The notes below the pieces were generated by a model. It did no database searches. It saw nothing but the letters and a program-made list of their open reading frames with translations, and was not told the DNA's origin. Shown in pieces: positions 393 to 63,929 of a DNA stretch of 64,000 nt; position 1 is the stretch's first letter, and every line of letters starts with the position of its first letter. A program made the position numbers and the translations under genes. The DNA is from an uncultured Gemmatimonadaceae bacterium. GTDB taxonomy: Bacteria > Gemmatimonadota > Gemmatimonadetes > Gemmatimonadales > Gemmatimonadaceae. The DNA lies in NCBI GenBank assembly GCA_963829055.1, contig CAWHHI010000003.1, forward strand, positions 384,001 through 448,000, in the 5' to 3' direction.

Positions 393-1340
393 ATGCCGCG
401 CGCGAAGAAGAAAAAACCCGAGGTCACGCCCGCCTCACGCGGGCTCGACGCCCGACGCCTCGCCACCGCCGCTCCACCCGCGAGTGTCGTCAACGTCGCG
501 GCCGCGATCGAGGAGAACGGTGGCTCCGCCCTCGCGACGTACCGCGACCCACTTGGCGGACACTGGCAGATCCTCGCGGCACTCCCCATCGACCGCGTCG
601 AGCCCACACCCTATCAGCGCGATCTATCCGAGGCACACGTCGACCGGCTGACCGTCGCCATCGACAAGCTCGACCGCTTCCTCGATCCCGTCATCGCCGT
701 CCCCGCCGGCGACGGCAAGTACTGGTCGCCTAACGGGTATCACCGACTCGGCGCCATGAAGCAGCTCGGCGCAAAGTCCATCGTCGCGCTCGTCGTGCCC
801 GAGCCCGAAGTCGCGCATCACATCCTGCTGCTCAACACCGAGAAGGCGCACAACCTCCGCGAGCGCGCGCTCGAAGTGGCGAGGCTGGCCGAAGCGCTGG
901 CGGAGATCGATGATCGTCCTGAGCGCGAGTTCGCGGTGCAGTTCGAGGAGGCGGCGCTCGTCACGCTCGGCTTCTGCTATCAGCAGAACGGTCGATTCGC
1001 CGGCGGCGCTTTCCACCCGGTGCTCAAGCGATGCGACAAGTTCCTGGGCTCCAGGCTGCCGAGGGCGCTCGAGACGCGGCGCGAGCGCGCGGCCAAGCTG
1101 CTCGAGCTGAACGACGCCGTGAACGCCGCGGTGGCGAGCCTCAAGGAGCGCGGGTTCGAGAGTCCGTACCTCAAGGCATTCGTCGTTGCCCGGATCAACC
1201 CGCTTCGCTTTCAGCGGAAGCCCACCGCCGATTTCGACGAGACGATCGACAAGATGATCGGCTCCGCGACGCGGTTCGACGCCACGCGGATCAGGGTGGA
1301 CCAGGTCGCCCGCAGCGGCGGCGCTCCCGAAGAGTCGTGA
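393..1340 (+). CDS. ParB/Srx N-terminal domain protein (stand-alone)
   Basis: 315 aa; LPIDRVEPTPYQRDLS...FLDPVIAV...SPNGYHRLGA matches the ParB-like fold; no parA nearby. Confidence 0.75.
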   Translation: MPRAKKKKPEVTPASRGLDARRLATAAPPASVVNVAAAIEENGGSALATYRDPLGGHWQILAALPIDRVEPTPYQRDLSEAHVDRLTVAIDKLDRFLDPVIAVPAGDGKYWSPNGYHRLGAMKQLGAKSIVALVVPEPEVAHHILLLNTEKAHNLRERALEVARLAEALAEIDDRPEREFAVQFEEAALVTLGFCYQQNGRFAGGAFHPVLKRCDKFLGSRLPRALETRRERAAKLLELNDAVNAAVASLKERGFESPYLKAFVVARINPLRFQRKPTADFDETIDKMIGSATRFDATRIRVDQVARSGGAPEES

Positions 1341-1434
1341 GCGCCGCTTCACTCCGATGCAACTATTGACTTCATTTCGGGTTCACAGCCTCTTACCCGG
1401 ACTTCTCGCCTTACCTGTCTTCCCCGTTCCCAGC

Positions 1435-1980
1435 ATGCGTCGTTTTTTCGTTCCCATCTTTTTCAGTGCTATCGCGAGTACCGCTGCTACCGCGCAGACG
1501 CCGGACTCGACGGCAGCACTTCCCGGAAAATCGGCACTGCAGGGCGTGTACACCGATGCCCAGGCATCCCGCGGCGACAACGAGCACGCATCGAACTGCA
1601 CGTCCTGTCACTCGACGACGAACTACGCTGGCCCCGCTTTCGTGAAGACCTGGGTCGGCCGGACCGCGTTCGACCTGTTCGAGCAGTTGAGGACGACGAT
1701 GCCCGACGACAGCCCGGGCAGCCTGTCGCAGCAGCAGTACGTGGACATCGTCGCCTACATCCTCAAGATCAACGGCTATCCGGCGGGCGCCGATTCGCTG
1801 TCGACGGACCCCGAGGCGTTGCGCCTCATCAGACTCGAGGCGAAGAAGGACTCGCAGACGGCGCGCGTTCCGCACCCGTCGAGCCGTGTATCGGCGAGCG
1901 TGCTCCAAGCCGCAGGCCTTCGCCCGCTGCACCCAATGTATCATGCTCACGCCGTCATGGCGCCAGCGACCACGCGATAG
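1435..1980 (+). CDS. secreted mono-heme cytochrome c
   Basis: Signal peptide; GVYTDAQASRG; CTSCH heme motif; TMP axial Met; IVAYILKINGYPAG. Confidence 0.85.
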   Translation: MRRFFVPIFFSAIASTAATAQTPDSTAALPGKSALQGVYTDAQASRGDNEHASNCTSCHSTTNYAGPAFVKTWVGRTAFDLFEQLRTTMPDDSPGSLSQQQYVDIVAYILKINGYPAGADSLSTDPEALRLIRLEAKKDSQTARVPHPSSRVSASVLQAAGLRPLHPMYHAHAVMAPATTR

Positions 1981-2007
1981 CCGCCAGCTCCTTCTCATTT
2001 CCCCACG

Positions 2008-3495
2008 ATGAAGGACGACGACCGCAACACCCTCGACCGCCGACGCTTTCTCAAGGTCGCCGGCGCACAGACCGGATTGCTCGTCGCGGCCGCACAGGGT
2101 GCGGGGGCGATCGCGCAGCAACAACAGCCGACTCCAGCACCCCGGCGCGCGCCGGCCGTCGTCACGCAGAAGTCGCCCGACATCGCGGTGATCGGTGCAG
2201 GTGCCTTCGGCGGCTGGACCGCGTACCATCTGCGGAAGATGGGCGCGCGCGTCACGCTCGTGGACACGTGGGGCCCAGGCAATTCGCGGTCGACCTCCGG
2301 CGAGGAGACGCGCGGCGTGCGGTCGTCCTACGGCGATCGACCGCACGGAGAACTGTGGGCGCGCTGGGCGACCGAAGCCGCGAAGCGGTGGAAGGCCTGG
2401 GATGAAGAATTCGACCGCACGTCGCAGGAGCGCGTCTTCCACACCACCGGCGACCTCATCTTCCGAAAGGACTGGGAGCCGTTCCTCAAGGACACGCGCA
2501 AGAATTGGGACACGGTCGGCATCAAGTACGAGGTGCTGACGCCTAACGACGTTCGGTCGCAATACCCGGTCATCGATCTCAAGGAGATCGGTGTGATACT
2601 CTACGAGCCGGGTGCGGGCGTGGTGCGTGCGCGCCGAGCGTGCGAGACCGTGGCCGAGGCGTTCAAGCAGCGCGGCGGCGACATCGTCGTCGCGCGAGCG
2701 CAGCCGTCGCTCGCGCAGGGCGATCGCCTGCAGGACATCGCGCTGTCCACCGGTGAGACGCTCAAGGCCGGCCAGTTCGTGTTCGCCTGCGGGCCGTGGC
2801 TCCCGAAGATCTTCCCCGAGTTCCTGCGGACGCGACTCCGCACGCCGATGGGGAACGTCTACTACTACGGCACGCCCATCGGCGACAACCGGTTCGTCGC
2901 GCCGCACATGCCGAGCTTCAACTTCACCGGCATCACCGGGTGGCCGTCGCTGCCTAACGACGCGCGCGGCTTCCGCGTGCGGGTGGGCGGCGGCACGCAG
3001 ACCGACCCCGACACGAGCCAGCGCTGGATCGACCCGAGCAACTTCACTCGGCCGCGCGCGTTTCTCATGGAGCGCTTCCCGCTGCTCATCGACGCGCCGC
3101 TGCTCGAGACGCGCTCCTGCCACTACGAGCTGTCCGTCACGCGCAACTTCTACATCGACACCCACCCCGAGTGGGCGAACGTCTGGATCTGCGGTGGCGG
3201 ATCGGCGGAGGGCTTCAAGTTCGGCCCGATGGTCGGTGACTACACGGCGAAACGCGTGATGGGCATCGCGGGCGACCCGGCGATCGCGAAGGGGTTCCGC
3301 ATCCCGAAGGAAGAGTTCGAGGAGCCGCCGCGCACAGCCGCCGACTCCGCGCGGGTCAAGGCGCGCGCCGACTCCGTCGCGAAGCTGAAGGCCGATTCGG
3401 CCAGGGCAGATTCCGCGAAGCGCGTGATCCCGAACGGTGCGTCATCCACCACCAGGCCCGACGGAGCAGCGAAGAAGCCATCGCTCTTCGAGTGA
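2008..3495 (+). CDS. Tat-exported FAD-dependent oxidoreductase (sarcosine oxidase/DAO family)
   Basis: DRRRFLK Tat motif; VIGAGAFG dinucleotide fold; GGSAEGFKFGP C-terminal motif. Confidence 0.88.
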   Translation: MKDDDRNTLDRRRFLKVAGAQTGLLVAAAQGAGAIAQQQQPTPAPRRAPAVVTQKSPDIAVIGAGAFGGWTAYHLRKMGARVTLVDTWGPGNSRSTSGEETRGVRSSYGDRPHGELWARWATEAAKRWKAWDEEFDRTSQERVFHTTGDLIFRKDWEPFLKDTRKNWDTVGIKYEVLTPNDVRSQYPVIDLKEIGVILYEPGAGVVRARRACETVAEAFKQRGGDIVVARAQPSLAQGDRLQDIALSTGETLKAGQFVFACGPWLPKIFPEFLRTRLRTPMGNVYYYGTPIGDNRFVAPHMPSFNFTGITGWPSLPNDARGFRVRVGGGTQTDPDTSQRWIDPSNFTRPRAFLMERFPLLIDAPLLETRSCHYELSVTRNFYIDTHPEWANVWICGGGSAEGFKFGPMVGDYTAKRVMGIAGDPAIAKGFRIPKEEFEEPPRTAADSARVKARADSVAKLKADSARADSAKRVIPNGASSTTRPDGAAKKPSLFE

Positions 3496-3519: not shown

Positions 3520-4408
3520 GTGAGCGATTCGCCACGACGCTTCGGCCGCGCGCTGCGCCTGAGCGCGCGTAAGCGGCGGATGGAACGCCTGTACGACGTC
3601 ATGTATTTCGGCGGCTGGCCCTCGTGGCTCGCCCGCCCGCTCGGCTTGCAGGGCCGCCTTCGACTCGAGACGCATCAGTTCTCGGTCGACGCCGGTGAAG
3701 GGCCGCCGGTTCCTCCGCTCCGCATCGCATTTGCCTCTGACCTCCACGGCGGTCCCGGCACGCATTCGGCCACGATTCGCCGGGCGTGTCGCCTGTTGGC
3801 CGAGTCGAAGCCTGACCTGCTGCTGTTAGGCGGCGACTTCGTGTCGTTCCACGCCCGCCACGTCGAGGGCGTTCTCGAGGCGATCGACGGCATCGACGCG
3901 CCGTTAGGCAGGCTCGCGGTGCTCGGGAACCATGACCTCATCGCTGACGACGCCTACCTCGTGCGCCGCCTCGCGACGATCGGCGTACGCACGCTCGTGA
4001 ACGAGAACGTGCGGTTGCCGCCGCCGTACGATCGGCTGTGGGTCTGCGGGCTCGACAACACTGAGCAGGGCACCCCGGACGGCCGCGCGCGCGGTCGCGG
4101 GGGCGGATGGCATTCGTCTCATGCTCATGCACTCGCCGGACGGCCTGTCAGCGTTAGGCGACGAGCCGTTCGCCGTCGGGTTCACGGGCCACGTGCACGG
4201 CGGCCAGTTCGTGCTGCCGGGCGGCAAGTCGCTGATCTCCTCCAAGGGCCCGTTCAGCCAGCGCTACCTCTATGGCGGTGTGTTCGAGCTCGGGCCGCCG
4301 GGCCAGCGCATCCTGCTCGTCAGCCGAGGCATCGGCCAGGGCTCGCTGCCGATGCGCTTCAACGCGGACCCGGAAGTCCACGTGTGTGACCTGTCATTCC
4401 GAGCGTAG
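3520..4408 (+). CDS. metallophosphoesterase (YkuE/YaeI-like), frameshift near 4080
   Basis: SDLH, GGDF and LGNHD motifs in one frame; HSPD, GHVHGGQ and SRGIG in the next frame. Confidence 0.85.
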
Positions 4409-4681: not shown

Positions 4682-5380
4682 GTGCCGAAGCACGAGTTGG
4701 TGTTGGACGCAGGCGAGTACGCGCCGGTTGCCGACCGCATCACGCTGTTCTACGCCCGCTACCCCACTGGGCGCATCCTCACTCGGCTCATCTCGCGAAC
4801 CCGGTACGAGATCACCGTGCAGGCGTTCGTCTTCCGGTCGGTAAGCGAGGAGCGACCGTCCGCCACCGGTCTCGCGTCCGAACGCATCGGTGACGGCGAC
4901 ATCAACACCGTCGCCTGTCTCGAGAACACCGAGACGTCCGCCATTGGCCGCGCGCTCGCGAACCTCGGTCTCACGGCGTCGTCGCATCGGCCGAGTCGCG
5001 AGGAGATCGACAAGGCGAATCGCGAGCGCGTTCGTCGCGTTTCGGAGCCTGCGCCGGCCCCGCGATCGCCAGTCTCGCCGCGTGGCGGATCGGCGCAGCC
5101 TCCTGCGGAGAAGCCCGCACCACCTTCGCCGAGCCTAACGAGGCGTGCAGCTGGGGTGAGTGCGGCGGGTAGCAACTCGATGCAGCGCCGCGCCGATCGC
5201 GTGATGGACGCGCTCGATCTGCTCGATCAGGCCGAGCGCGCCGGCCTCCCGCACAAGCGCGCGCGGCGACTTCGCGATGCGCTCACCGAGCCGGCGGCGA
5301 GCGTCGTCACCGTCGAGCGTGTGGAGCGGATGATCCGCGCCTGGACCGCCGCCCGTCACGCCACGCATCTGCGCCTGTAA
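4682..5380 (+). CDS. putative Rad52/Sak-like single-strand annealing protein with C-terminal extension
   Basis: GGAGG RBS before GTG; YAPVADRITLFYARYPTGRI and LENTETSAIGRALANLG resemble phage annealase-like proteins; Pro-rich linker. Confidence 0.55.
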   Translation: MPKHELVLDAGEYAPVADRITLFYARYPTGRILTRLISRTRYEITVQAFVFRSVSEERPSATGLASERIGDGDINTVACLENTETSAIGRALANLGLTASSHRPSREEIDKANRERVRRVSEPAPAPRSPVSPRGGSAQPPAEKPAPPSPSLTRRAAGVSAAGSNSMQRRADRVMDALDLLDQAERAGLPHKRARRLRDALTEPAASVVTVERVERMIRAWTAARHATHLRL

Positions 5381-6402: not shown

Positions 6403-7142
6403 GATACGACGACACCACGCCCCCCGCGTCCGAGCGCGCCGGTATCGAGCGCGCGAAGGACCTTCTCGTTCGCGTCGCGGGTGACCGCGCCATGGAGCGG
6501 CTCGATCCACTGGACCCGTCGGAGGCCCCGTTTCTCGAGTGGTACGCGCGCGAGGCGCGGTTGACGTTGTCGGCGGCGGACCAGCAGAAGCTCGAAGCCG
6601 GCGCCGATCGGTTCGTGCGTGCCGTGCTCGCTCGCCGCGGCGTCGAGCGGACGCGTGTGCGAGAGGTCGCGGCCGAACCGGAGAGCGCCCCGGCGTGGGA
6701 GGAGGGGACGCTGGCGCAGGTGGTCGCGGCGGCAGCTCGCGTTAGGCACGCACCGGCGCTGGAGCTGTCAGTTGCGGCTGGCGTCGGGCGCGAGCTCTGG
6801 GATGAACCGTGCGAACGCTGGATTCCACTGCCGGACGGCGCGCCGGACGGGCGCTACGTCGCGCTGCGAGTGACGGGCGACAGCATGGTGCCGCTGCTGC
6901 ATGACGGCGACACGATCCTCGTGAAGCTGGGAGATGAGCTCGTGCCTGACGCGGTAGTCGTAGCGCGTGTGCCGGATGGCGGGTACGTGGTGAAGCGAGT
7001 CGGCGGACTCGCGGGCTCGCGGGTAGAGCTGGAGTCGTTCAACCCGGACTATCCACCCATTGTCATCCCGCGCGATCCGTCGCTCGTGTTAGGCACCGTG
7101 CTGCTGCGCTGGTGCTCCCACGGCGATCGCTCGGTGCACTGA
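6399..7142 (+). CDS. LexA/UmuD-type S24 peptidase domain protein with non-HTH N-terminus
   Basis: VAAG cleavage site, GDSM Ser, VVKR Lys and LESFNPDYPPI; GTG start overlaps the sigma stop (GTGA). Confidence 0.85.
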   Translation: MRYDDTTPPASERAGIERAKDLLVRVAGDRAMERLDPLDPSEAPFLEWYAREARLTLSAADQQKLEAGADRFVRAVLARRGVERTRVREVAAEPESAPAWEEGTLAQVVAAAARVRHAPALELSVAAGVGRELWDEPCERWIPLPDGAPDGRYVALRVTGDSMVPLLHDGDTILVKLGDELVPDAVVVARVPDGGYVVKRVGGLAGSRVELESFNPDYPPIVIPRDPSLVLGTVLLRWCSHGDRSVH

Positions 7143-7610: not shown

Positions 7611-9959
7611 CTACCGCCGCCACTGATACGCCACCTTCACGAAGAACCCGTCACTCCGCCGCTCGAGATCCGAGAAGCTCGACGGTTCGAGCCCTGCCCG
7701 CGTATCGCCATACCCGAAGAACGCCACCGTGCCCGGAGTCGGCTCGTACGACACCAGCCAGTCCGTCTGCAACGACCCGACGTCGCCGCCTGACACCGGC
7801 GACCCGGTTGATAGAAAGATCTGCTCCCCCGTCGGCGTCCGGAGCCCCGTGGTCCGCTGCGCCTGGTACTGGCTCACCACCCGGAAGAACAACGCCCGCG
7901 TCGGCTGATACTCCACCTTCGCGCGCGGGATGACCGTCCGCGCGTACTCCGACCCGTCGAACGCGCGGTCGAGCTGAGACAGTATCAAGCTCGCCTCGGC
8001 GCGCACACTCTTCGTCGGCCGCGTCGTTAGGGTCCCCGTCGCCCGCCACTCTCGCCCCTCCGACCCCTCGGCGAAAATTGGGACCTCGTTCCGCGCCACC
8101 GTCGCCGTCGCATTGAACTGGCGGAACGTCGGCGTCGTCAACGTCACCGACGCATTGATCAACCCCGCGAGCTGATCGTCGGGCGGCACGTACGGCTCGA
8201 GACCGTCCGGGCCGACGATCGCCAGTCTGCTGTAGGCCTGCTGGTCGAACGTGAAGAAGTTCCGCGACGTGTTGATGGATGCATTCCACCCGCCGCGGAG
8301 CCTGAACATCCCGCTGATCGACTCCTGCCCCTCGTACGCGTCACGCAGCCCGAAGTTGTTGTACAACCAGATCCGCGTCGGGCCGAAGAATGCCGTGATG
8401 TTCTCGAAGCGCGCTCCCGGCTTCCCGTAGTACGAGAACCGGTTGAAGCCGCTCGCGTTGATGATGCCCGTCCGCGGCACGAAGCCCGAGCGGCTCACGA
8501 ACTCCTCACCGAGTCCGCTGAACTTGTAGTTGAAGCCCCAGAGTCGGCCGGTGCGGTCGAGCTCCGCCTTCCATACCGGCGACGTCTTCGCCTCGGACGT
8601 GCCTAACAACAGGGAATCCTTCGTGTACGAACCGCCGACCTGCGTCTCGAAGTAGTACATGCGTCCGAACACGTAGCGGAGATCGGTGGCGACAACGGTG
8701 TTCGTCGTGTCGCCGGCGCGGCGATCCGTCAGCGTCAACGCGATCGTCGAGTTACCACCGAAGTCTCGACGCAGTCGCGCGACGTTGAACAGCGCCTTGT
8801 CGCAGTCCCGCCCGATCTCGACGCCGTTCACGAACCGCGTCGGGCACGACACATCGTCCAGCGCGGAGAGATACGCCACGCTCACCGGGCCAAGCTTGCC
8901 GGTGACCTTCGCGCCCGCGATCGGCCGCGTGATCTGCCGCGTGTAGACGAGCTGGTTCGGCGTGTTGAACAGCTCGATCCCCTCGAGGAAGAACGGCCGC
9001 TTCTCGGCGAAGAACAGGGCGAATCGCTCGTTCACCGTCACCAGACTGGCGTCGGACTCGACCTGCGAGAAGTCGGGCTTCACCGTGCCGTCGAGCGTGA
9101 CGGAGGGCAGCGCGACCTTGAAGTTCACGCCGGCATCGGGATTGATGTCCTCTCGTTCGAACGAGCCCGCCGCGTTCTGCGCGCCGTTCCACTGCGCGGT
9201 GATGAACGGCTGCACCTCGGTGGTGATGCCGCGCTCGATGTTCGCGATCCCCGTCAGCGTCCCCGACTCGCTGAGAAAGCTCGCCGTCGCCCGGCGTGCG
9301 TCGGTCCACGTGTCCTCGAAGCCGGTGGACTGCACGTTTCGCACGACGTTGATCCCCCACGTCTGCGGATCGCCCGCGGGAAATCGGAGACTCTTGAATG
9401 GGATCCGGACCTCGACGACATACCCGCTGTCCGTCAGCTGCCCTTTGGACTCGAAGCGGAAGTCCGGGTTCGCGTCGATGTTGCCGCCGAACATGCTGCC
9501 GGCGCTCGCCGCGCCCTCGGTGCGTACGCCATCACCCTGCGAGCCTAACGGGTTGACGATGAAGAAGTACGCGCGCCGATGATCGTTGAACGTGTCGAGG
9601 TAGATCGTGACGCGGTCCTCGTTCCCGAGCTTGTCGCGGTCGGCGACGGTGGCGCGGATCGACCCCGGATTCTTCGCGTTCGCGATGATGGCGAAATAAA
9701 TCGCATCCTGCGAATAAAAAACCCGCGTCTCGGTGCGGTCCTCGGCAGGACGGTTATCGAGCGGCTGATACTGATGAAAGCCGGTGAGCCTCGCGGCCTG
9801 GGACCATGCTGGGTCGGTGAGCGACCCATCGATGGTGGCGGTCGTGGTCAGCCGCGGAATGGCGACGGCGGGTCGACCAGCTCCATCATAGGACTGACCC
9901 GGCGTGGCAGGACCCTGCGCGCCGGCTATTTGTAGTAGAAGAAAGGCGGTTGCAAACAT
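7611..9959 (-). CDS. DUF5916/CBM9-like domain outer-membrane protein
   Basis: Signal peptide; IDGSLTDPAW; EVRIPFKSLRF; PDFSQVESD; EKRPFFLEG; C-terminal FFVKVAYQWRR. Confidence 0.85.
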   Translation of the reverse strand: MFATAFLLLQIAGAQGPATPGQSYDGAGRPAVAIPRLTTTATIDGSLTDPAWSQAARLTGFHQYQPLDNRPAEDRTETRVFYSQDAIYFAIIANAKNPGSIRATVADRDKLGNEDRVTIYLDTFNDHRRAYFFIVNPLGSQGDGVRTEGAASAGSMFGGNIDANPDFRFESKGQLTDSGYVVEVRIPFKSLRFPAGDPQTWGINVVRNVQSTGFEDTWTDARRATASFLSESGTLTGIANIERGITTEVQPFITAQWNGAQNAAGSFEREDINPDAGVNFKVALPSVTLDGTVKPDFSQVESDASLVTVNERFALFFAEKRPFFLEGIELFNTPNQLVYTRQITRPIAGAKVTGKLGPVSVAYLSALDDVSCPTRFVNGVEIGRDCDKALFNVARLRRDFGGNSTIALTLTDRRAGDTTNTVVATDLRYVFGRMYYFETQVGGSYTKDSLLLGTSEAKTSPVWKAELDRTGRLWGFNYKFSGLGEEFVSRSGFVPRTGIINASGFNRFSYYGKPGARFENITAFFGPTRIWLYNNFGLRDAYEGQESISGMFRLRGGWNASINTSRNFFTFDQQAYSRLAIVGPDGLEPYVPPDDQLAGLINASVTLTTPTFRQFNATATVARNEVPIFAEGSEGREWRATGTLTTRPTKSVRAEASLILSQLDRAFDGSEYARTVIPRAKVEYQPTRALFFRVVSQYQAQRTTGLRTPTGEQIFLSTGSPVSGGDVGSLQTDWLVSYEPTPGTVAFFGYGDTRAGLEPSSFSDLERRSDGFFVKVAYQWRR

Positions 9960-45296: not shown

Positions 45297-45297
45297 G

Positions 45298-54358: not shown

Positions 54359-54403
54359 AACGAAAGAGCGCCCCGGCATGCAATGCCGGGGCGCTCTTTC
54401 GTT
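54359..54403. terminator. bidirectional intrinsic terminator
   Basis: 21-bp stem AACGAAAGAGCGCCCCGGCAT-GCA-ATGCCGGGGCGCTCTTTCGTT. Confidence 0.85.
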
Positions 54404-54457
54404 TGGACCTTCTCTATGCTGTCGTCTCGTTGGCAGCTTCCGCCAACGTTGCCCACG

Positions 54458-54733
54458 TCACGCGGCAAAGATCTCGAGCTGGCGGAGGTCTCCGTCGCTC
54501 GTGCCCGTTGCTGGGTCGCTGCAGGCCCCGAGCAGATGCGCGGTCTGGTGGTACAATCGGAGTGTCTGCACTGGCGCGATCATCGCGCGACCGCCGCGGC
54601 GTGCTATGAGCAGTGCTTCCTCTCGCACCTGGCGCGGCAATGCGCGCGCAAGTGGATGGTGAAGCAGCTCCATGATTCGCTGGGCGTCGCGAGCCAGCAG
54701 CGCAGTGCAAAGGGTATCCAAAAACGCCAGCAC
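54458..54733 (-). CDS. small hypothetical protein ending in QLEIF
   Basis: GGAG RBS before GTG; AT-rich promoter-like stretch upstream; ends near the terminator. Confidence 0.55.
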   Translation of the reverse strand: MLAFLDTLCTALLARDAQRIMELLHHPLARALPRQVREEALLIARRGGRAMIAPVQTLRLYHQTAHLLGACSDPATGTSDGDLRQLEIFAA

Positions 54734-54836
54734 GGAGACTCCGTCGTATTTGGTGTTATATACACATTGTAACTAATACCCATGACGGTCAACCCTGTTC
54801 CCCGTAACAGGACAGACATTTTTCGCCCGGGGCACG

Positions 54837-54878
54837 GCTGAGCACCACCGGCGCGTTAACGCGCCGGTGGTGCTCAGC
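54837..54878. terminator. perfect 42-bp palindrome downstream of nrtR
   Basis: GCTGAGCACCACCGGCGCGTT|AACGCGCCGGTGGTGCTCAGC. Confidence 0.55.
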
Positions 54879-54906
54879 TCGATTCCCTCAGTTATTGGAG
54901 GGGCTC

Positions 54907-55612
54907 CTAGCCTGAAAGCAGATCGAAGCGGACCCCACGACGCTGATTCCTGCGCCGTCGAGGGGCGTAGCGGAACAGCTGGGCCGGGCGGCCACGCCCC
55001 TCGCTCCGCCACTCGTCTGTCGGCTCCACAAGCCACGCGGCCTGCAGGGCGCGTCGGAAGCTCGCCTTGTGAAGGCGACGCCCCAACAGCAGCTCATAGG
55101 TCTGCTGCAGCTCACTGAGCGTGAACGTTGGTGGCAGCAGACGAAACGCGATCGGAGCTTGGTCGAGCCGCAGGCGAATCGTCTCCAGGGCAGCATCGAG
55201 GAGCGCGCGCTGACGAGGCGTTATGCGTCGGCACATCCGCGAGCGCGAACCAACCACTCTCTTCGCCGTTCGGCAACGAGCTTCCTTGAGGCACCACGCC
55301 GACGTACGCGACGGACAAATCTGTTTCAGTCGGATGACGGCGCCCATCACCAAATGCGCCAACCTGCTCGAGCCACGTGGGCTCGACCTCAGCCGCTTCG
55401 GTAGCGATGCGTCGCGCCGCATCGATCATTGATTCATCTACCCGCGGCTCGTCGTGCGGCACCCACCAACGCTCACGCGCGCGCGCCTCGTCCGCTCGGA
55501 TGAGCAACACCGCGAGCTGCTTGCCTCGCGGCGTGAGAAGAACGACATCCACGGAGAATGTCGTGCGCCGCGGAACGGGTCGCGCAGCGGTGGCCTGAGG
55601 GCGTTCGCGCAT
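54907..55612 (-). CDS. nrtR: Nudix-related transcriptional regulator, frameshift near 55225
   Basis: SVDVVLLT, WLEQVGAFGD; C-terminal wHTH FTLSELQQTYE...KASFRR...GRPAQLFRY. Confidence 0.85.
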
Positions 55613-55621
55613 CGTGCGCGA

Positions 55622-55649
55622 ATTAGTCACGAAAGGAGACTAATGTCAA
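55622..55649 (-). promoter_or_regulatory. nrtR promoter with overlapping palindromic operator
   Basis: Minus-strand TTGACA at 55644-55649; ATTAGTC-N9-GACTAAT at 55622-55644. Confidence 0.6.
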
Positions 55650-55800
55650 GGCCTCGCGAATTTTGTCACGGTTCGACACCAACTCAGAGACACGTCGGCT
55701 CGCGCGCTTATTGTAGGTCGGTCGCGAGACACCGTCAACGTCTCGTTATGATCCGGACGCGATGCACGTTCGCATCCGATCTGCATCTCGCGTGTCACGC

Positions 55801-57650
55801 TCACATCTCGAGATCGCTGCGCGTCGCGTCACGGCGCTCACCTCCACCGAATGATGCAAATGGCGGAAGACTTATCGGCAACGTGCCCGTGATCGCACTC
55901 GAGCCCAGCAGCGCGCGCGCTGCTGCCTGCTGCGAGACTTGGCTCGGACCCCACGCGATCATGTACGACGACACAGACGGTGTCTGTTGCAGCAGATACG
56001 GCGTGCCGAACGACACGAGCACCAGGCGCCGACTGCTTCGCATTCCAAGCTTGGCAATGAAATCGACGAACGCACGAGGCGCACCGGCCGTGGCGGTCGT
56101 CGAACTGATATTCACGTACGATCCGACGAGCACGACGTCGGACGAATCAGCAGCTGCTAGCAGTCGCTGAAAATCTGGAGCGACGTCGTCCGAGCTGACG
56201 AATTCGGTTCGCAAGCGAATCGTATGCACGTCGCATTTCCGCGGTGAACGCGACACCGGCGCCGAGATCGGTACGACGCGCGTACGTGATCGAGAGGACG
56301 CGCGTTGATCGCCGAGTGGAAAGCGGCACAGTTCGCATCGAATCGTTCACGAGCACTAGTCCGCGCTCGGCCACGCGCCGCGCAACCGCGGCATGAGTCG
56401 TATCGCCAACGATAGCGCGAACCGAATCGAGATTCACGAGGCGGGCGCGGTCGAGACCGAAGTGCCGCTTCCATCTCGAGCAGTCGTGCCACCGACGCGT
56501 CGATTCTCGATTCGGGATACCGACCTTCGCTGCACGGCAGCAACAACCGCGTCGATCGTCCCCGTCACGTCTGACGGCATGAGTAGCACATCCGCTCCCG
56601 CGGCGACCGCGCGCCGTGCGGCTTCAGCGGCGCCGAACTGGCGCAGCACACCAGCCATATCCATGGCGTCAGTGATCAACACACCGCCGTATCCGAGCGA
56701 GTCCCGGAGAAGTCCGGTGAGCACGCGCGGTGACAGCGTGGCAGGCACGCCGCTGCTGTCGAGGGCCGGCAGAATGCCATGATACGTCATGATCGCGCCG
56801 ATGCCCGCCGAGATCGCGGCGCGAAACGGTACGAGCTCTACCGAGTCGAGTCTCGCCCTACTGGCTGTAACCGTCGATAGCTCGAGATGGGAGTTCGTCT
56901 CGGTGTCTCCGTGACCGGGAAAATGCTTTCCCGTCGCGAGCATCCCGTGCTCCTGGACACCACGCACGAGCGCGGCACCAAGACGTGCGGTCAGCCGAGG
57001 GTCTTCGCTGAACGAGCGCGCGCCAATGACCGGGTTGGCCGGGTTGTTATTGACATCGAGTACCGGCCCAAAGCTGACGTGGATCCCGAGCGCCCTCCCC
57101 TCGAGCGCCGTAACACGACCGACGTCATACGCCAGCGTCGTGTCACGCGCTGCGCCGAGCGCCATCTGCAACGGGAAGACAGTCGCTCCGCCAAGATCGA
57201 TCGCGTTCGGCACAAAGTATCCACCGCGTACGCGAAAGCCGACTCCTGTCTCGAAGTCGGCGCTGAACAGTAGCGGGACGCGAGCCATGCGCTGAAGCGC
57301 ATTGATCTTCGTCGCAATGTCGAGTGGAGATCCCACCGACACGATGAAGCCGCCTACCTGCTCCTGCACGACGAGTCGCTCGAGCTGCGTCCACGATGGC
57401 GCGTCCGTTGCCGCATAGTCCCCAAGCATGAACGGCCACACCATCTGCGCCACCTTCTGTCGCAGCGACATCGTCGCGAGCACTGAGTCGGTCCACGCCG
57501 ACCGCTTCACCGATCGAGCATTGCCGGCGGCCACTGCACCAGAATGTTGGTGCGCGGGACGATGACGATGCACAAGCGGCCGCAAACACGCCGATTGTCG
57601 CGACCACAACGCGTGTCGACGCACTCCACCGCGCGTGACGACGCGGCCGC
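55801..57650 (-). CDS. glycoside hydrolase family 3 (beta-N-acetylglucosaminidase-like), several frameshifts, start uncertain
   Basis: SADFETG, PVLDVNNNPANPVIGARSF, KHFPGHGDT and ITDAMDM; GH3 C-domain SFGTPY. Confidence 0.88.
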
Positions 57651-57654
57651 GCCG

Positions 57655-57933
57655 CTACCACTGAATCGTTCCTTTCTTCGTCGTGTCGACGTCCTCGCCC
57701 ATTCCGCTCTTGAAGAGAAACGCCGTCATGTTGTTCGTGAGGAACGCGCGGGCTTGTGGATCCATCACATTGAGGCCGTAATGGTTGATCAGCATTGTCT
57801 GTTGCTTCAACCATTCGCTCCAACATTGCTGACAGATCTCCTGCACCACGCGTGCGCCGATCTTGCCGGGAAATGGAGGGCGTTCGAAGCCACTGCGCGT
57901 CTGTCCGCAGCGCGAGCAAGTCACGTCGGGCAT
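57655..57933 (-). CDS. yggX: Fe(II)-trafficking/oxidative damage protection protein
   Basis: PPFPGKIGARV...CWSEWLKQQTMLINHYGL. Confidence 0.88.
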   Translation of the reverse strand: MPDVTCSRCGQTRSGFERPPFPGKIGARVVQEICQQCWSEWLKQQTMLINHYGLNVMDPQARAFLTNNMTAFLFKSGMGEDVDTTKKGTIQW

Positions 57934-58148
57934 AAACTCTGGAGTCGAGGCGGTACGGGTCGATCTTTCGCGATGCCCGCTATGGCGAATCGATGGCGAT
58001 CATCGAAGGCATCGGTGTGCCCCGAAACGTAAAGTGCCGAGCGACTCACACCCAGTGGCGGAGATCGCTCGGCACTCTGCTTTCGCGGTTCGTCTTGCTG
58101 CTTTCGTCACGCACGCAGGTTCGCCGAGCGCGACGGTGTTCGCATTCG

Positions 58149-58911
58149 TTATGCGCGCCCTGTGCTGCGGGCGTACTGCACCTTCGCCAGGCCAATGAGC
58201 GACAGGATTCGGATGTAGAACCAACCTACATCGAACTCATACCATTTCGCTTTGAACTTCGCGGAGTGCGGGTCGGCGTGATGGTTGTTGTGCAGCTCTT
58301 CGCCGCCGAGCCAGATCGCGATCGGTGAGATGTTTCGGCTCTCGTCCTTGACCTCGAAGTTGCGGTAGCCGAGCGCGTGACCGACTCCATTGATGATTCC
58401 GGCCGCCCAGAACGGAATCCAGATCATCTGAACACCCCACACGATGGGGCCGACGAAGAAGCCAAAGAGATACAGATCGGCCACGAGCATCAGCGAGGAT
58501 GCCGACCCAGTTGAGACGGCTCAACAGCGCGCGCTCGATCCAGTCGTTGGGCGTTCCCTTGCCGTACTTTTCGAGGACGCCCGGTTGGCGGACGGCGGCG
58601 CGGTAGTAGAAGGCACCTTTGAGTACGATGTTTCGAAGCCCCTCGACGAGCGGGCTGTGCGGATCACCTTCTCGGTCCGCGAAAGCATGGTGCTTTCGAT
58701 GACATGCGACCCACTCCTTGGTGACGATCGCTGTGGACAGCCACAGCCAGATGCGCATTGGGAACGCCGCGAGAAAATGAAATTTGACGCTGCGATGAGT
58801 CTGTGCCCGATGTAGAAAGAGCGTCACGCAGACGTTCGTGAGGTGGCCGGCTACAATGATGAACACAATCGGTTTCCACCACGCCGTTCCCCAACTTCCA
58901 AAATCTGGCAT
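58149..58911 (-). CDS. acyl-lipid delta-9 fatty acid desaturase, frameshift near 58495
   Basis: His boxes HRAQTH, HRKHH and GEELHNNHH. Confidence 0.9.
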
Positions 58912-59106
58912 CGCGTCGTTTCTCCGTCCCGGTTTCGATCTGCCCCGTCGCAACGAGCACTCGACGATGAGGTCCGGCGCACGAGGGCGCCGGGAAATGA
59001 ACCCTCAATGTACAAAGCACCTTCCGCTCTTGACAACCACGACCGCACACTGGTTTCTGGCGTTGGGGCTTGCTCGGCGCTACTGGGCTACATACCGTCA
59101 CCAACA

Positions 59107-60213
59107 ATGACGAGACGAGGCAGCCAGGAGATCGCTACGGAGCAGCGCGCCACCGCCGCCGGCACCGAGCGGTTCCAGCGGCGGTTCGGCGAGCAGTTCG
59201 TCGAAGACTTCTTCCGCCCCCTCGGCGGCGGGCTCGTCGCTTCGTCGATTGGGATCGGTACATACCTCGGCGAGTGCGATGATGCTGACGACGTCACCTA
59301 CGCTGCTGCTATACGCGCCGCTCTCGAGAACGGCATCAACATCATCGATTCGTCAGTCAACTACCGCTGCCAACGGTCCGAGAGAACCGTAGGACTGGTA
59401 CTTCGCGACGCCCTCGCTGACGGAATCGTCAAACGCGATGAGGTGATCGTGTGTACGAAGGGCGGCTACATCCCGCTCGACTCGTCAGCGCCGTCAACGC
59501 GCGATGAGTATCTGTCGTATCTCCAGCGCACGTTCATCGACACGGGTATCGTGTCCGCGGACGACGTCGTGGGCGGCGGCCATGCACTTTCGCCATCGTT
59601 CCTCGCACACCAGATCCAACTCAGCCAGACGAATCTCGGTGTGCGCACGCTGGACGTGTATTACCTGCACAACCCCGAACAGCAACTCGATTCAGTACAG
59701 CCCGCGCGGTTCCGAACGATCCTCCGACGGGCGTTCGCGTTGCTCGAGGAGCGCGTCGCGAGCGGAGACATCGGATGCTACGGATGCGCAACGTGGAACG
59801 GATTGCGCACGGCGCCGGACGCGCGCGGACATCTCGACCTCGCTGAGCTCGTGGGCATCGCTCGCGATGTTGGCGGCGAGGATCATCATTTCCGCATCGT
59901 ACAGATGCCGGTGAACCTGGCGATGTCAGAAGCGGTGCGGACGCCGACGCAGCGGCTCGGCACTCGGCGCGTCGTACCACCGTTACAGGCAGCGACGGAA
60001 CTTGGCCTCTCGGTTGTTGCCAGTGCGACACTCATGCAGGCGCGTCTCACCACCGACCTGCCTGCCGCGTTGCGCGATACATTCCCCGCGCTCGCGACCG
60101 ATGCCCAGCGCGCAATCGCGTTCGTGCGGTCGCTTCCCGGCGTGAGCTCGGCGTTGGTGGGGATGCGCTCTCTGGATCACGTCAGCGAGAACATCGCCGC
60201 GGCATCCCGGTGA
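59107..60213 (+). CDS. aldo/keto reductase
   Basis: SSIGIGTYLG, GINIIDSSVNYR, VCTKGG, DVYYLHNPE and ALVGM. Confidence 0.9.
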   Translation: MTRRGSQEIATEQRATAAGTERFQRRFGEQFVEDFFRPLGGGLVASSIGIGTYLGECDDADDVTYAAAIRAALENGINIIDSSVNYRCQRSERTVGLVLRDALADGIVKRDEVIVCTKGGYIPLDSSAPSTRDEYLSYLQRTFIDTGIVSADDVVGGGHALSPSFLAHQIQLSQTNLGVRTLDVYYLHNPEQQLDSVQPARFRTILRRAFALLEERVASGDIGCYGCATWNGLRTAPDARGHLDLAELVGIARDVGGEDHHFRIVQMPVNLAMSEAVRTPTQRLGTRRVVPPLQAATELGLSVVASATLMQARLTTDLPAALRDTFPALATDAQRAIAFVRSLPGVSSALVGMRSLDHVSENIAAASR

Positions 60214-60559
60214 GCGACGGCGATGCGTCGTCCTGACGGCGTCGGGTTGCCGTGCGTGCGAGTCGCACGCCGCGTCAGGCAGAGTGTGATCGGCGAGGGA
60301 GAGGCCTTTCACCGGACGTCCCCGGATGGCGATCGCGGTGAGAAGGCCGATCTCCACTCGCCTGCACAATTCACGCAATGATCACGCGCGCGTTGCACTG
60401 GCGTGAAAGTTGGCGATTGTTGCGAATCACGCAATACGCTGACAACTCATTCCGAACAATTCGCGAAAATATTCTGCCGTCGATTTCGGTCGCTCCGATC
60501 GCTCTGACTGCCCCGATGTCGATCGACATTGTCGCATCACCTCGGCGATTCTCCAGCTC

Positions 60560-61579
60560 GTGAGCGACGAATCATCCCGACCCTCGCATCATCGCGCGGG
60601 CGGCGGCTTTCGCAACCCGTGGCCTGGCGGTACGCCGCGCGGACTCGGCGGCGTACTGCGCTGGATGTTCTACGATCGCGTCGTTCATCCCCGCGAGAAG
60701 GATCCTCCACGATCAGCATTTCCGCTGGTTCAGTCGTCGTTCTTCTCGCCGCGCGCGCTCGCGAAGACGTTGGGCGCGACGTGGGTTGGTCATTCCACGG
60801 TGCTCGTTCAACTCGGCGCGACGAACATACTGACGGACCCCATGTGGTCCGAGCGCGCGTCACCCGTGTCGTTCGCTGGGCCACGCCGCGTCGTTCCGGC
60901 CGCCGTGTCACTCGACGCGTTGCCTCCGCTCGATCTCGTTCTGCTCTCACACAATCATTACGACCACCTCGATGAGGTCACCGTTCGGGCGCTGGTCGCA
61001 CGTAACCCCGAGGCAACGTGGGTCGTGCCGCTCGGCGTCGCGGCATTCGTTAGGGCAGGCGGCGCGCACAACATCGTTGAGCTCGATTGGTGGCAGGTGA
61101 TGCGGACCGGCGAAGTCGAGGTGACGTGCACGCCGGCGCAACATTTCAGCGGACGAAGCATCAACGACCGGGATCTCACGTTGTGGTGTTCATGGAGCGT
61201 GAGGTCCCACGATCTCGCGCTGTACTTCGGCGGTGATAGCGCGTACCACCCCGAGTACCCCGCGATTGCGTCCCGATGCGGGCCGTTCGATGCCGTGTTG
61301 CTCCCGATCGGCGCGTATGAGCCACGATGGTTCATGCGAGCGGTGCACATGAACGCGCAGGAAGCCGTTCGCAGCTATCGTGACCTGGTTGCCGGCACAT
61401 CTCGCGACCGGCGGACCATCATGGTCCCGATCCACTGGGGAACGTTCAAGCTGACGGACGAGCCCCTCGATGAGCCACCCGCGAAACTTCTCGAGGCGTG
61501 GGACGACGCGGGGCTGTCGAGGGACGATCTCTGGCTGCTCCGGCACGGGGAGTCGCGCCATGTCACAATCGGAGCGTGA
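60560..61579 (+). CDS. MBL-fold metallo-hydrolase (NAPE-PLD/RomA-like)
   Basis: WVGHST, SHNHYDHLD, PAQHFSGR, LPIGAYEPRW and PIHWGTF. Confidence 0.92.
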   Translation: MSDESSRPSHHRAGGGFRNPWPGGTPRGLGGVLRWMFYDRVVHPREKDPPRSAFPLVQSSFFSPRALAKTLGATWVGHSTVLVQLGATNILTDPMWSERASPVSFAGPRRVVPAAVSLDALPPLDLVLLSHNHYDHLDEVTVRALVARNPEATWVVPLGVAAFVRAGGAHNIVELDWWQVMRTGEVEVTCTPAQHFSGRSINDRDLTLWCSWSVRSHDLALYFGGDSAYHPEYPAIASRCGPFDAVLLPIGAYEPRWFMRAVHMNAQEAVRSYRDLVAGTSRDRRTIMVPIHWGTFKLTDEPLDEPPAKLLEAWDDAGLSRDDLWLLRHGESRHVTIGA

Positions 61580-61645
61580 TCAGGGCTCGCGGTGGACTGG
61601 TCCGCCGTTCAACTTCCCGATCCCATTCTGCCGATACGGTTAGGC

Positions 61646-62232
61646 ATGACCATCGCGACTCAGAAGGCGCTGGTGCCTTCGCTGGCATCGATTGCCTTGA
61701 TCCTTGCGTGCCCCGACGCAATTGCCGGGCAGTCGTTGAGCACACGCCCGGCGTCTGTCGCGTTGACGGTGGTGGTGCCCCCACGCGCGCCGCCCGTGCT
61801 GGTGGAGCAGTGACGGATGGGAGTGCGACCGTCCTCGGTCGCACGTCCACCGCGGTCGATCTCGAAACGATGGTAGGGCTCGGAGATCACCTGACATCCC
61901 GGATCGAGGTCCGGCTCGGAGCCGCGTGGACCACGGATTCCGCGCGCGTGTGGGTACGAAGCCGAAACGGCACGTTCGAGCAACTTCTCAGCAACACAAT
62001 GATCGTGGCGCTCGACGCGCCACTCGCGCGTTCGGTCGTGCGGTCGCCGTTGCATTTCCGTGTCGAGTCGGCTCGGCCCCTCGCGTTGCCGTCGCTGTCG
62101 ATTCCGGTCGAGTACCGCCTGACTGTCGGCACCGGAGACGAAATCGCGGTGTGGACCTTTCCGACGGTCATCCGATTCGATTCGACCCCACCTAACGTTG
62201 ACTTCGGATCGCCGTCGCCATCTAGTCGTTAG
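61646..62232 (+). CDS. secreted hypothetical protein, probable frameshift near 61790
   Basis: Signal peptide from ATG 61646; beta-rich continuation in the adjacent frame. Confidence 0.45.
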
Positions 62233-63929
62233 GCTCGACGGGCGGTCGCACAGCCGCCGGCGGCGGCGGGTGTCGCCTTCCCCGGTAGCACGCGGCGCAC
62301 GACGATGCGAAGTGGCGTGCTCTCGCGCTCGAGGCGCGGCGTCGCGGTAGCGGGTGCGGAGACCAGCTCGAACTGACCGGTGGCGAGGAACTCCTCGAGC
62401 AAGACGCGAACTGGAACGTCGCGGCGGCTGGACATCCGAACGAAGAAGCGCCCGCGCGAGTCGGTCACCACGGCCGAGCCACCGATTTCGACGGTTGCGC
62501 CGTCCACTGGAGTAGACGCTTCATTCACGACCGTCCCCTCGACGATATAGCGCTCGAACTTGATCTCCACAGCGTGGCCGCCCCCGCCGAGCACGTCGCC
62601 CGCGTAGAAGAACGTGCTTGCCGATCCAGTGTAGTTCACCCGACCGTCGGGCATCACGAAGCTGGCAGCGTTCACGCGATAGCCGCCGATCGGGACGCGC
62701 ACGTTCAGCGCGATCGTCTGCACGAAGGGCTGCGTGGGACGATATGGTGTGTGAACGACCTGGTAGTCCACACCGACCGACGCCAGCCCTGACGCCATCG
62801 CTCCGCCGAACGAGACGGACGTGCGGCCATTGGCATATGTCAGTACCTGCAGCACCGATAGTCGCGGTGAGAGGAACTCGCGAACGTGCAGCACAGGCGT
62901 GGTGGAACGGGCCGGTGCCGGCGACCACACGCGCAACAGGTAGAAATCGGCTTGCAGCCAGCTCGCGACGTCGCGAGCTGCCGTGAAGTACGAGCTCACA
63001 CTCCGCGTCCCGGGCGTGCGTGAATCGAAGATGCCGGCCGCGAGGTTCGCGCCGATGAATCGCGCCGATCCGAACGCCTGGTTCAGCATCGCGCGATCTG
63101 GAGCGTTAGGCAGCGTGGAGTCCTGGCGGAAGTGCTGACGGCCAGCTCCGAAGGAGAAGCCGGGTGCTGGCCGAACCGTGACCACGATGTTCTCGCGGTC
63201 TGCCTCGCTCTGTGCCGGAGTAGGCACTCCGGTTCGACGGAACCGATCACTCATGCTGACGTATGCCGCTCGCACGTCCAGCCTTTCATGCCTGATCGCC
63301 ATGCTCGCCGATCCGTACGGCTTGTTCCCGCCGACGCCACCGGTCGCGCCGGCTTCGAAGCCGCTGGGCGACTCCCACTTGATGCCCCCGAGAACGGTCT
63401 GGCGCGACGAGAACAGCGCGTGCGTCGTTAGGCGTAGCGTGGGTGATAGCAGACGCTCTGCCTGGACGACACCGATCACCTTGTCCTGATGGAGCGCGTT
63501 GACGAACGGCGCCGGCGTCGCGACCGCGCTCGTACCGGCGAACGCATACAGCGACGACCGTCGAGTCGCCCGGCGAAGCCCGGCACCTTGCGCTAGAATC
63601 GCGTGCGAACCTCCGAATACGTCGGTCGCGAAACGGACGGCAATCGCGTCGTTGCCGAGGCGCAACGTATCGCGCCCGAGCCGCTGTTTGAGGAACGCAC
63701 TGAAGCGAAACCCGCCGAGATAGCCGAGCCCGAGGTTCCCTTCGAACCCTTCGCCCCAAACGTTGAGTGCACCGCCATACCCCTGATACAACGAAGAGCC
63801 ACCACCCTGCACTTCGAAGACCTGCGCGCGCACGACGGTCGGCACTGCCACCATGGACGCTGCGACAACCAGCGTCCGTGACCAACGCTTGGTCGCCGAG
63901 ACGACGGTAAGTGGCGCAGTGACGTTCAC
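62229..63929 (-). CDS. outer-membrane beta-barrel-like protein with carboxypeptidase-regulatory-like domain
   Basis: Signal peptide; alternating beta strands; VEGTVVNEASTPVDGATV...TDSRGRF. Confidence 0.7.
   Translation of the reverse strand: MNVTAPLTVVSATKRWSRTLVVAASMVAVPTVVRAQVFEVQGGGSSLYQGYGGALNVWGEGFEGNLGLGYLGGFRFSAFLKQRLGRDTLRLGNDAIAVRFATDVFGGSHAILAQGAGLRRATRRSSLYAFAGTSAVATPAPFVNALHQDKVIGVVQAERLLSPTLRLTTHALFSSRQTVLGGIKWESPSGFEAGATGGVGGNKPYGSASMAIRHERLDVRAAYVSMSDRFRRTGVPTPAQSEADRENIVVTVRPAPGFSFGAGRQHFRQDSTLPNAPDRAMLNQAFGSARFIGANLAAGIFDSRTPGTRSVSSYFTAARDVASWLQADFYLLRVWSPAPARSTTPVLHVREFLSPRLSVLQVLTYANGRTSVSFGGAMASGLASVGVDYQVVHTPYRPTQPFVQTIALNVRVPIGGYRVNAASFVMPDGRVNYTGSASTFFYAGDVLGGGGHAVEIKFERYIVEGTVVNEASTPVDGATVEIGGSAVVTDSRGRFFVRMSSRRDVPVRVLLEEFLATGQFELVSAPATATPRLERESTPLRIVVRRVLPGKATPAAAGGCATARRA

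Follow-up and report, generated by a model that had tools for sequence, protein, structure and literature searches.

The 64,000-nucleotide stretch analysed here (hereafter the window), from an uncultured Gemmatimonadaceae soil bacterium (assembly GCA_963829055.1, contig CAWHHI010000003.1, positions 384,001 to 448,000), carries 35 dispersed copies of a non-palindromic octamer, GCCTAACG/CGTTAGGC, which we call the word. The word is real and strongly maintained, with 5,004 copies in the source genome. It behaves like a DNA uptake sequence in most measurable respects, while its membership of that class is not established. We tentatively read it as an uptake-type signal accumulated by molecular drive, which would make it a third uptake-sequence system; we regard this reading as quite possible, at a little under an even chance.

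Abundance and placement of the word

A preliminary description of the window had listed the 35 copies by eye, and all were verified at their exact coordinates, 18 on the + strand and 17 on the - strand. Its count of about 15 further CCTAAC cores was also accurate, as the window contains 50 cores, exactly 15 beyond the perfect copies. Dinucleotide shuffles of the window (n = 100) gave a mean of 0.99 copies and a maximum of 4. In the source assembly (7.78 Mb, GC ~66.5%, 86% complete), GCCTAACG occurs 2,457 times on the + strand and 2,547 times on the - strand, on all 20 contigs and at a density of 48-80 per 100 kb per contig throughout, and the top 5-mer of the genome is CCTAA (z 101). The k-mer and codon-shuffle checks suggested in the preliminary description both place the counts far above expectation: motif-masked Markov models of order 2-4 predict 18-55 copies genome-wide, and the 5,321 confident genes from our own gene caller contain 2,973 copies against 127 under within-gene synonymous shuffling. 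Overall, the observed counts are 23-48 times above the synonymous nulls.

The word does force rare codons, as had been proposed: it supplies 70% of the TTA codons in the confident genes, 59% of X-P-N-[ADEGV] sites are encoded with it, and 174 of 683 TAA stops (25%) and 133 of 1,385 TAG stops (10%) genome-wide lie inside it. The description of the copies as intragenic and in different frames applies to the window, where 34 of 35 fall within open reading frames (ORFs) in four frames (P-N, L-G, V-R and L-T) and the remaining one, at 62227, forms convergent stops. It does not extend to a genic preference genome-wide, where gene calls cover 75% of the bases and contain 65% of the copies, with another 9% of the copies falling at gene edges and 26% elsewhere; the word tracks sequence length with no genic enrichment. 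There is little polarity relative to transcription (1,498 sense, 1,767 antisense) and no replichore polarity, with 1,218 of 2,348 copies (52%, summed) on the G-rich strand by GC skew.

Some reading frames in the window are approximate owing to assembly frameshifts. Genes broken across frames, namely an FtsX permease (17294-19797), a glutamine synthetase (27453-28812), comEA-pilB (C12:492-495 kb) and a methyltransferase (C8:73-78 kb), point to indel errors in the source assembly. An Rfam scan of the window returned no matches.

Gain and conservation of sites

Codon alignments were built for 141 genes shared with a congener at 79% nucleotide identity, for 163 genes of a motif-poor genome and for 140 genes of a second motif-rich genus. 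Gaps at the sites were found in 0 of 55, 2 of 70 and 2 of 58 cases, respectively, with no excess over the background of 1-4%; the sites arise through substitution, not insertion. In the congener 28 of 55 sites are intact, in comparison with 26 of 447 (6%) identical TA-containing non-motif 8-mers, and 6 of 58 are intact in the other motif-rich genus. The tripeptide counts equal those of the motif-poor genome, with no visible shift. The absence of excess gaps, the conservation and the unshifted tripeptides together indicate that the word is written mainly via synonymous choice and actively kept, in line with the earlier proposal of selection or biased gain at the DNA level.

The non-conserved sites mostly differ at two or more positions. 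Local mutation shielding was not seen, as the four-fold site identity near the sites is 0.51-0.57 against a gene mean of 0.55, a comparison of low power near saturation. A footprint of a mobile element or repetitive extragenic palindrome (REP) was rejected because the flanks are unrelated and there is no insertion relative to orthologs.

Variants, spacing and density

The functional consensus is approximately N-C-[C/A]-TAAC-R, with a strong preference for G at both ends. The enriched variants in the source genome are ACCTAACG (827 copies), GCATAACG (583), GCCTAACA (435) and CCCTAACG (428); most core substitutions occur at background frequency, and the flanks of the copies are unrelated to each other. 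An apparent depletion of one-base variants against the synonymous null disappeared under the masked Markov null and was rejected.

The copies repel each other below ~300 bp. The pair correlation in successive 50-bp bins is 0.17, 0.23, 0.37, 0.49, 0.69, 0.78 and 0.88, in all orientations, while that of six control 8-mers is near or above 1. The repulsion is common to ACCTAACG, GCATAACG, GCCTAACA, CCCTAACG and GCCTAACC, and absent for GCCTGACG, GCCGAACG and GCCCAACG. With the same estimator, the uptake signal sequence (USS) of Pasteurellaceae gave 0.46-0.66 at 50-400 bp and was back up by ~1 kb (700 sites in 65 of 79 loci, with 6 overlaps and 8 non-family or unclear loci left out and terminator pairs collapsed), and the cyanobacterial HIP1 gave ~1, with no repulsion (13 loci, only 119 sites). 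The source genome, a congener, the genome G304 and the named plasmids described below all show this USS-like repulsion, which reaches less far and is not accompanied by terminator pairs. The source genome has fewer inverted pairs at 40-160 bp than expected; at C18:97494-97548 there is a lone terminator-like hairpin with the word at the end of both arms. A short periodicity was rejected, the signal consisting of just a 3-bp term and weak 200-280 bp terms.

Both 16S genes contain zero cores, and three contig ends of the source genome that look foreign from their translations (C6:5-55 kb, C6:598-623 kb and C11:1-42 kb) are nearly word-free. These ends, together with a dense contig (C114) in the otherwise motif-poor genome G325, suggest chimeric joins or mis-binning. 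The more native the codon usage of genes, the denser the word, which rises from 0.45 per kb to 0.69 per kb, or from 24% to 42% of opportunities, and stretches of 9-15 kb without the word exist in native DNA. The source genome also holds a second, intergenic-looking repeat family, TCGGAATGA (767 copies), of the shape GTCATTCC...GGAAT, which is similar to the NTS/SRM hairpins that Ssn nucleases cleave, as described in the available text of PMC11893778.

Distribution across bacteria, plasmids and phages

Among 40 relatives, copy numbers are 2,501-5,112 in all six congeners, 6,360 in one further genus, 173-605 in eight genomes and 3-65 in 25. In 300 genomes of the phylum, 16 reach at least 150 copies: 11 of the 70 from the same family, 5 of the 125 from a second one (all in one genus), 0 of 3 from a third and 0 of 102 from outside the order. 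These tallies include four unpublished genomes, on which no claim rests. Members of a single genus have 66, 3,896 and 4,141 copies. In a PilB tree of 27 genomes the motif-rich genomes are spread over four or more clades with motif-poor ones between them, and they do not cluster in the PilB and PilW trees; an RpoC tree came from a quick search in which 9 of 30 genomes had no match, and 4 of 20 rows, read in a wrong frame, were left out.

In a second phylum, Verrucomicrobiota, 16 of 151 Chthoniobacterales genomes have at least 150 copies, and three Chthoniobacterales/Verrucomicrobiae genomes hold 2,595-5,186; two further candidates were dropped. The Chthoniobacterales dialect is GCCTAACGA (97%). 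A three-copy scan of species genomes returned at least 127 stretches; the matches listed include CRISPR, tandem and attC arrays, and those with dispersed copies on both strands belong to Gemmatimonadaceae and Chthoniobacterales/Verrucomicrobiae. The word is patchy in Gemmatimonadales, and this distribution indicates that the bias arose several times there and separately in Chthoniobacterales.

Mobile DNA also carries the word. Two named megaplasmid records of the cultured Gemmatirosa kalamazoonensis hold the word at 29 and 32 per 50 kb, with G preceding all 73 cores. In tailed phages the counts are 31 in 17 kb, 15 in 7.1 kb, 43 in 41 kb and 35 in 45.6 kb, on both strands, and a Mu-like provirus has 26 in 25.5 kb; the phage and provirus loci were chosen for carrying a pair, and 12 of 50 loci had at least four copies. 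The phages thus hold 7.7-21 copies per 10 kb against 6.4-14 at the presumed host level, and the reversed control gave 0-4. A first viral scan (at least 120 stretches) found mostly chance matches or phages with a strand bias; among those listed, a single locus of at least 10 kb clearly had copies on both strands. In four phage loci (L230, L242, L243 and L263) abundant CCTAAC cores, often with GT after them, are confined to one strand; these probably reflect codon usage, unrelated to the both-strand pattern.

Identity with the crossover end of integron attC sites

The attC consensus has R' as GTTRRRY and R'' as RYYYAAC, in the box order R''-L''-L'-R'. Read as c-GTTAGGC, the word is the R' end (crossover end) of folded attC sites, at 20 of 21 and 7 of 9 sites in two motif-poor kin. 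Most of these folded sites begin GCCTAAC-a, and the enriched variant GCCTAACA equals their R'' end; the cassette ORF orientation (+ strand) shows R', and the word as the R'' end was rejected. The few word copies of the motif-poor kin sit in integron arrays. In other soil phyla, too, this 8-mer closes attC-like repeats, at loci of Acidobacteriota, Capsulimonadaceae, Phycisphaeraceae and Verrucomicrobiia, and in Chthoniobacterales the attC ends read CTAACGAG, like that order's dialect. An 8-base match to attC in two phyla would be unlikely by chance.

The source genome has intI with ~10 attC sites near it, which end in the word or a one-base variant, and a shortened, perfectly palindromic attC at C20:163143. 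Tyrosine recombinase matches there number just three (XerC-, XerD- and IntI-like), very few for 7.8 Mb. In contrast to attC sites, the dispersed copies are lone intragenic cores lacking L boxes, the hairpin (~55-140 bp) and a cassette ORF. Nor does their abundance track intI, which is present in 14 of 20 motif-rich and 19 of 26 motif-poor Gemmatimonadales, and in 9 of 11 and 8 of 14 Chthoniobacterales, respectively. There was no intI match in the densest genome of either order (G014 in Gemmatimonadales, G322 in Chthoniobacterales). Furthermore, the common attC core GTCTAACG shows no enrichment in the source genome (24 copies, ratio ~1). Since intI does not follow the word and GTCTAACG is not enriched, the integrase is an unlikely reader.

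Candidate readers

No gene tested tracks the word, including the integrase, three methyltransferase families, PilB, PilW and FimT. The source genome encodes pilM-Q with minor pilins, PilB with ComEA upstream, ComEC, and DprA (by motif); ComEC and ComEA-like proteins were found in five of five genomes, with ComEA upstream of pilB in Gemmatimonadaceae. PilB, ComEA, PilW and FimT were rejected as word-tracking genes because motif-poor kin carry them too, so any specificity must lie in residues. ComP (PF16732) was matched in 0 of 5 genomes, with the control genomes blank as well. The ComEA-like proteins of Chthoniobacterales (L397 and L398, ~310 aa) have an extra N-terminal domain that looks staphylococcal-nuclease-like by eye.

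The best candidate is an orphan FimT-like pilin of the source genome, with the C-terminal sequence SRLGRVRR (GRVR) and a FimU-like fold (best match FimU 4ipu, E 6e-5). Its orphan gene, predicted GspH/FimT fold and arginine-rich C-terminal GRxR would resemble Legionella pneumophila FimT, a DNA receptor with a GRxR DNA-binding motif according to the available text of PMC8897410, except that the candidate occurs in motif-poor kin. Alignment column 34 is R in 9 of 9 motif-rich and 3 of 43 motif-poor loci, in a set of 77 loci with 22 unclassified and 3 motif-poor ones too short, where the nine motif-rich loci form only two clades. This R is also found in the motif-poor G265 and missing in the intermediate G019 and G020 (G304, G240 and G297 were outside the check), and we consider the residue a weak lead.

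At C8:73551-78317 the source genome encodes an Eco57I/MmeI-like methyltransferase, ~1,070 aa long in relatives, with an SNF2-type helicase after it, and the two appear to form a conserved system. Of 46 Gemmatimonadales searched, 45 have the enzyme, nearly always once and irrespective of word abundance, as against 0 of 8 motif-rich Chthoniobacterales. The C5 family (PF00145) had no match in the source genome, G304 or G014, nor did the N6/N4 family (PF01555) in the source genome or G304. In a comparison of 852 kb (~27%) of G322 with the source proteome, no shared DNA-binding protein stood out.

An uptake-type signal and its alternatives

In the uptake reading, word-bearing DNA would be preferred by a surface-exposed part of the type IV competence pilus, for which the FimT-like minor pilin is the best candidate. 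Word-bearing fragments would enter via ComEA/ComEC, be loaded by DprA and recombine more often. Point mutations creating the word would then spread and those breaking it would be reversed, mostly synonymously, a cause that would fit the pattern of the alignments, and a second copy on one fragment would add little, which would give the observed short-range repulsion. Such a bias would have come on repeatedly within Gemmatimonadales and independently in Chthoniobacterales, in agreement with the distribution, and convergence on this word may have come from the conserved crossover end of integron cassettes, with which it is identical.

The available text of PMC7811141 and PMC1939737 describes uptake sequences for two bacterial families only, the Pasteurellaceae (USS, AAGTGCGGT) and the Neisseriaceae (DNA uptake sequence, DUS, GCCGTCTGAA, with the receptor ComP). 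Like them, the word is present in thousands of non-palindromic, strand-unbiased copies (one per 0.7-1.6 kb in the richest genomes) with a point-mutation origin, conservation above background, lineage dialects, short-range repulsion and type IV pilus competence genes. Its scarcity in rRNA, foreign-looking contig ends and low-nativeness genes, set against its high density in megaplasmids and phages, agrees only in part with USS, which evolve by point mutation and are low in rRNA and new DNA in the portion of PMC7811141 available; the same portion cites Mora et al. for no extra uptake with two USS within 100 bp. The available text of other sources reports that DUS spacing matches conversion tract length (PMC2397512), describes mismatch-load patterns (PMC1939737) and places about half of uptake sequences in predicted terminators (10.1101/2025.10.24.684340). 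The earlier inference of an uptake-like sequence stands as the best reading and is unproven, the receptor being a candidate only.

Several features differ from USS/DUS or weigh against it. The word is 8 bp long, comes with no visible shift in tripeptide content and lacks terminator pairs, its repulsion fades near 300 bp rather than ~800 bp as for USS, and inverted pairs within 50 bp number 30 against 162 expected in the source genome, while USS have 146 against 38. In Chthoniobacterales there is only a mild dip at 50-150 bp, with same-strand clusters below 50 bp. The competence genes are found equally in motif-poor kin (PilB 27 of 30, PilW 28 of 30 and FimT 45 of 49 family genomes), and the FimT query matched nothing in 10 Chthoniobacterales. 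Unlike USS/DUS, the word is dense in megaplasmids and phages, and a surface receptor explains the phage densities only via long prophage residence. Nor is it confined to one family: it occurs in two phyla and patchily within a genus. A word common to two phyla is a poor self tag, and its presence in the second phylum argues against a purely species-specific one.

The phage densities, at or above the host level and on both strands, and the full density on the named megaplasmids would be explained if the word were the site of an intracellular DNA-binding protein (a nucleoid organiser, an anti-silencer or a factor in defence self-licensing) with a reach of a few hundred bases, whose gene moves horizontally while phages and megaplasmids copy the word; a new site would give a small benefit unless another is near. 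The patchy, graded spread in two phyla, with 66 against ~4,000 copies inside one genus, the same-strand clusters of Chthoniobacterales and the absent terminator pairs are consistent with this explanation as well. On the other hand, the 9-15 kb gaps in native DNA mean that strict protection cannot depend on the word, the partial comparison with G322 gave no DNA-binding stand-out, and the repulsion resembles that of real USS. We consider it the main rival, though rather unlikely; the nucleoid-protein option raised earlier gains from the phage data. An integron integrase or an attC-processing host factor that writes or maintains the 7-8 bp core by abortive strand exchange and conversion would account for the identity with the R' end, for GCCTAACA as the R'' end in motif-poor kin, for the dialect match of CTAACGAG in two integron-rich orders and for the two or more differences usual at non-conserved sites. 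It is improbable in view of the distribution of intI, including the densest genomes, the unenriched GTCTAACG, and the absence of indels and of an attC-like excess of inverted pairs, and it leaves the repulsion unexplained.

The word shape (asymmetric 6-7 bp, penultimate A, invariant TAAC) fits the MmeI/BREX-type target style, and a methyltransferase that marks the word, with methyl-directed repair creating and keeping it, would act on phage DNA too; an Eco57I/MmeI-like enzyme with an SNF2 helicase is present in the source genome. However, this enzyme does not track the word in either order, the C5 and N6/N4 families are unmatched in the genomes searched, and the four-fold identity near the sites equals the gene mean (low power). 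The DNA-modification option of the preliminary description thus loses ground and has only a slim chance of being right. HIP1 (GCGATCGC), for which the available text of PMC5861425 and PMC4390886 reports periodicity, methyltransferases and an open function, is an octamer of similar abundance that is mostly intragenic and conserved beyond background; unlike HIP1, the word is not a palindrome, has no coextensive methyltransferase among the three families tested, and repels, whereas HIP1 shows no repulsion (with the small sample given above). Chi, KOPS and AIMS are likewise over-represented non-palindromic octamers, from which the word differs by its lack of replication polarity and its far higher enrichment, so the distinction from Chi, KOPS and HIP1 drawn earlier is upheld. 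A sequencing or assembly artefact, a codon-usage by-product or a mobile-element footprint is practically negligible despite the many frameshift-like errors in the source assembly: the word is in all six congeners, many independent assemblies and named isolate plasmids, its counts far exceed the synonymous nulls, the flanks are unrelated and there are no indels. As the preliminary description had asked of independent reads, short-read contigs from four studies match window positions 1-20,000 at ~99%, and none of the 40 differences listed, of 1,815, lies in a site. All remaining explanations together have very little probability.

Copies in the window

The individual copies are given in Table 1. 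The motif-poor stretch spans 23.6 kb of lower GC and holds a replication initiator A (PF10134) ORF at 47616-48467 on the + strand; polA-, mnmE- and upp-like genes, read from translations, lie further along the contig. This stretch is possibly an origin region or a recent replacement. At 5407-7142, a peptidase S24 (LexA-like) ORF (6234-7142) lies behind an ORF without a Pfam match.

Table 1. Word copies and the motif-poor stretch in the window.
Feature	Position	Strand
Whole set, 35 dispersed GCCTAACG/CGTTAGGC copies; flanks unrelated; local sample of 5,004	728..63433	both
Copy, TCG CCT AAC GGG (S-P-N-G), ORF 393-1340	728..735	+
Copy, P-N frame, FAD oxidoreductase 2008-3495	2541..2548	+
Copy, P-N frame, FAD oxidoreductase 2008-3495	2952..2959	+
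Copy, L-G frame (TTA GGC), ORF 3520-4389	3902..3909	-
Copy, ambiguous frame, V-R or L-G (two calls overlap)	4152..4159	-
Copy, L-T frame (CTA ACG)	5133..5140	+
Copy, V-R frame (GTT AGG), peptidase S24 ORF	6740..6747	-
Copy, L-G frame, minus-strand gene 7611-9959	9543..9550	+
Copy, L-G frame	11473..11480	-
Copy, P-N frame, histidine kinase 11490-12908	11612..11619	-
Copy, L-G frame, histidine kinase 11490-12908	12303..12310	+
Copy, L-G frame, histidine kinase 11490-12908	12525..12532	+
Copy, L-G frame, sigma-54 regulator 12871-14250	12919..12926	+
Copy, P-N frame, sigma-54 regulator 12871-14250	13788..13795	-
Copy, L-T frame, MacB/FtsX permease 14802-17201	15828..15835	-
Copy, L-T frame, MacB/FtsX permease 14802-17201	16257..16264	-
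Copy, L-G frame, MacB/FtsX permease 14802-17201	16539..16546	+
Copy, V-R frame, FtsX piece (frameshifted assembly)	17527..17534	+
Copy, L-T frame (approximate)	17934..17941	-
Copy, L-G frame, FtsX piece	18796..18803	+
Copy, P-N frame (approximate)	19799..19806	-
Copy, L-G frame, histidine kinase 20686-22410	21634..21641	+
Copy, L-G frame, GAF histidine kinase 22514-24871	23036..23043	+
Copy, L-G frame	26295..26302	-
Copy, V-R frame, NAGPA-family ORF	26929..26936	-
Copy, L-G frame, same NAGPA-family ORF as 26929 copy	27123..27130	-
Copy, L-G frame, glutamine synthetase	27558..27565	+
Copy, P-N frame, multi-GAF kinase 31367-35011	32590..32597	+
Copy, P-N frame, multi-GAF kinase 31367-35011	33712..33719	+
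Copy, L-G frame, multi-GAF kinase 31367-35011	34326..34333	-
Copy, P-N frame, HlyD-family gene	38561..38568	+
Copy, L-T frame; sole perfect copy within 38569-62226	51053..51060	+
Copy, overlapping stops (TAG on +, TAA on -) of convergent ORFs 61498-62232 / 62229-63929	62227..62234	-
Copy, P-N frame	63104..63111	-
Copy, L-T frame	63426..63433	-
Motif-poor stretch: 1 perfect copy, 8 variant cores, GC 0.63-0.64	38569..62226	.

Significance

We did not find the word described in the literature searched, where CCTAACG appeared only in an unrelated context; supplementary k-mer and methylome tables and most subscription papers were outside the search. The identity with attC, the repulsion benchmark and the FimT candidate are new here. 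The word joins uptake sequences and HIP1, for which no function has been established over decades, as a third case of hyper-abundance, and its origins in two phyla are graded and independent. It is a practical binning marker, flagging the motif-free contig ends of the source genome and the dense contig of G325. With rich and poor members of one genus, word-bearing phages and a cultured species at hand, the question of drive versus function is directly testable.

The available text of PMC12614218 holds that transformation feeds attC cassettes to integrases, and that of PMC4889954 treats cassette clusters as possible transformation substrates. It is conceivable, if doubtful, that two unrelated soil groups repeatedly evolved an uptake preference for the attC crossover end, harvesting cassettes across phyla, and that drive wrote the core through chromosomes, megaplasmids and phages. 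If this is true, the word would mark foreign mobile genes for uptake instead of kin DNA, and if the attC link is causal, natural transformation in soil would be tied to cross-phylum cassette capture.

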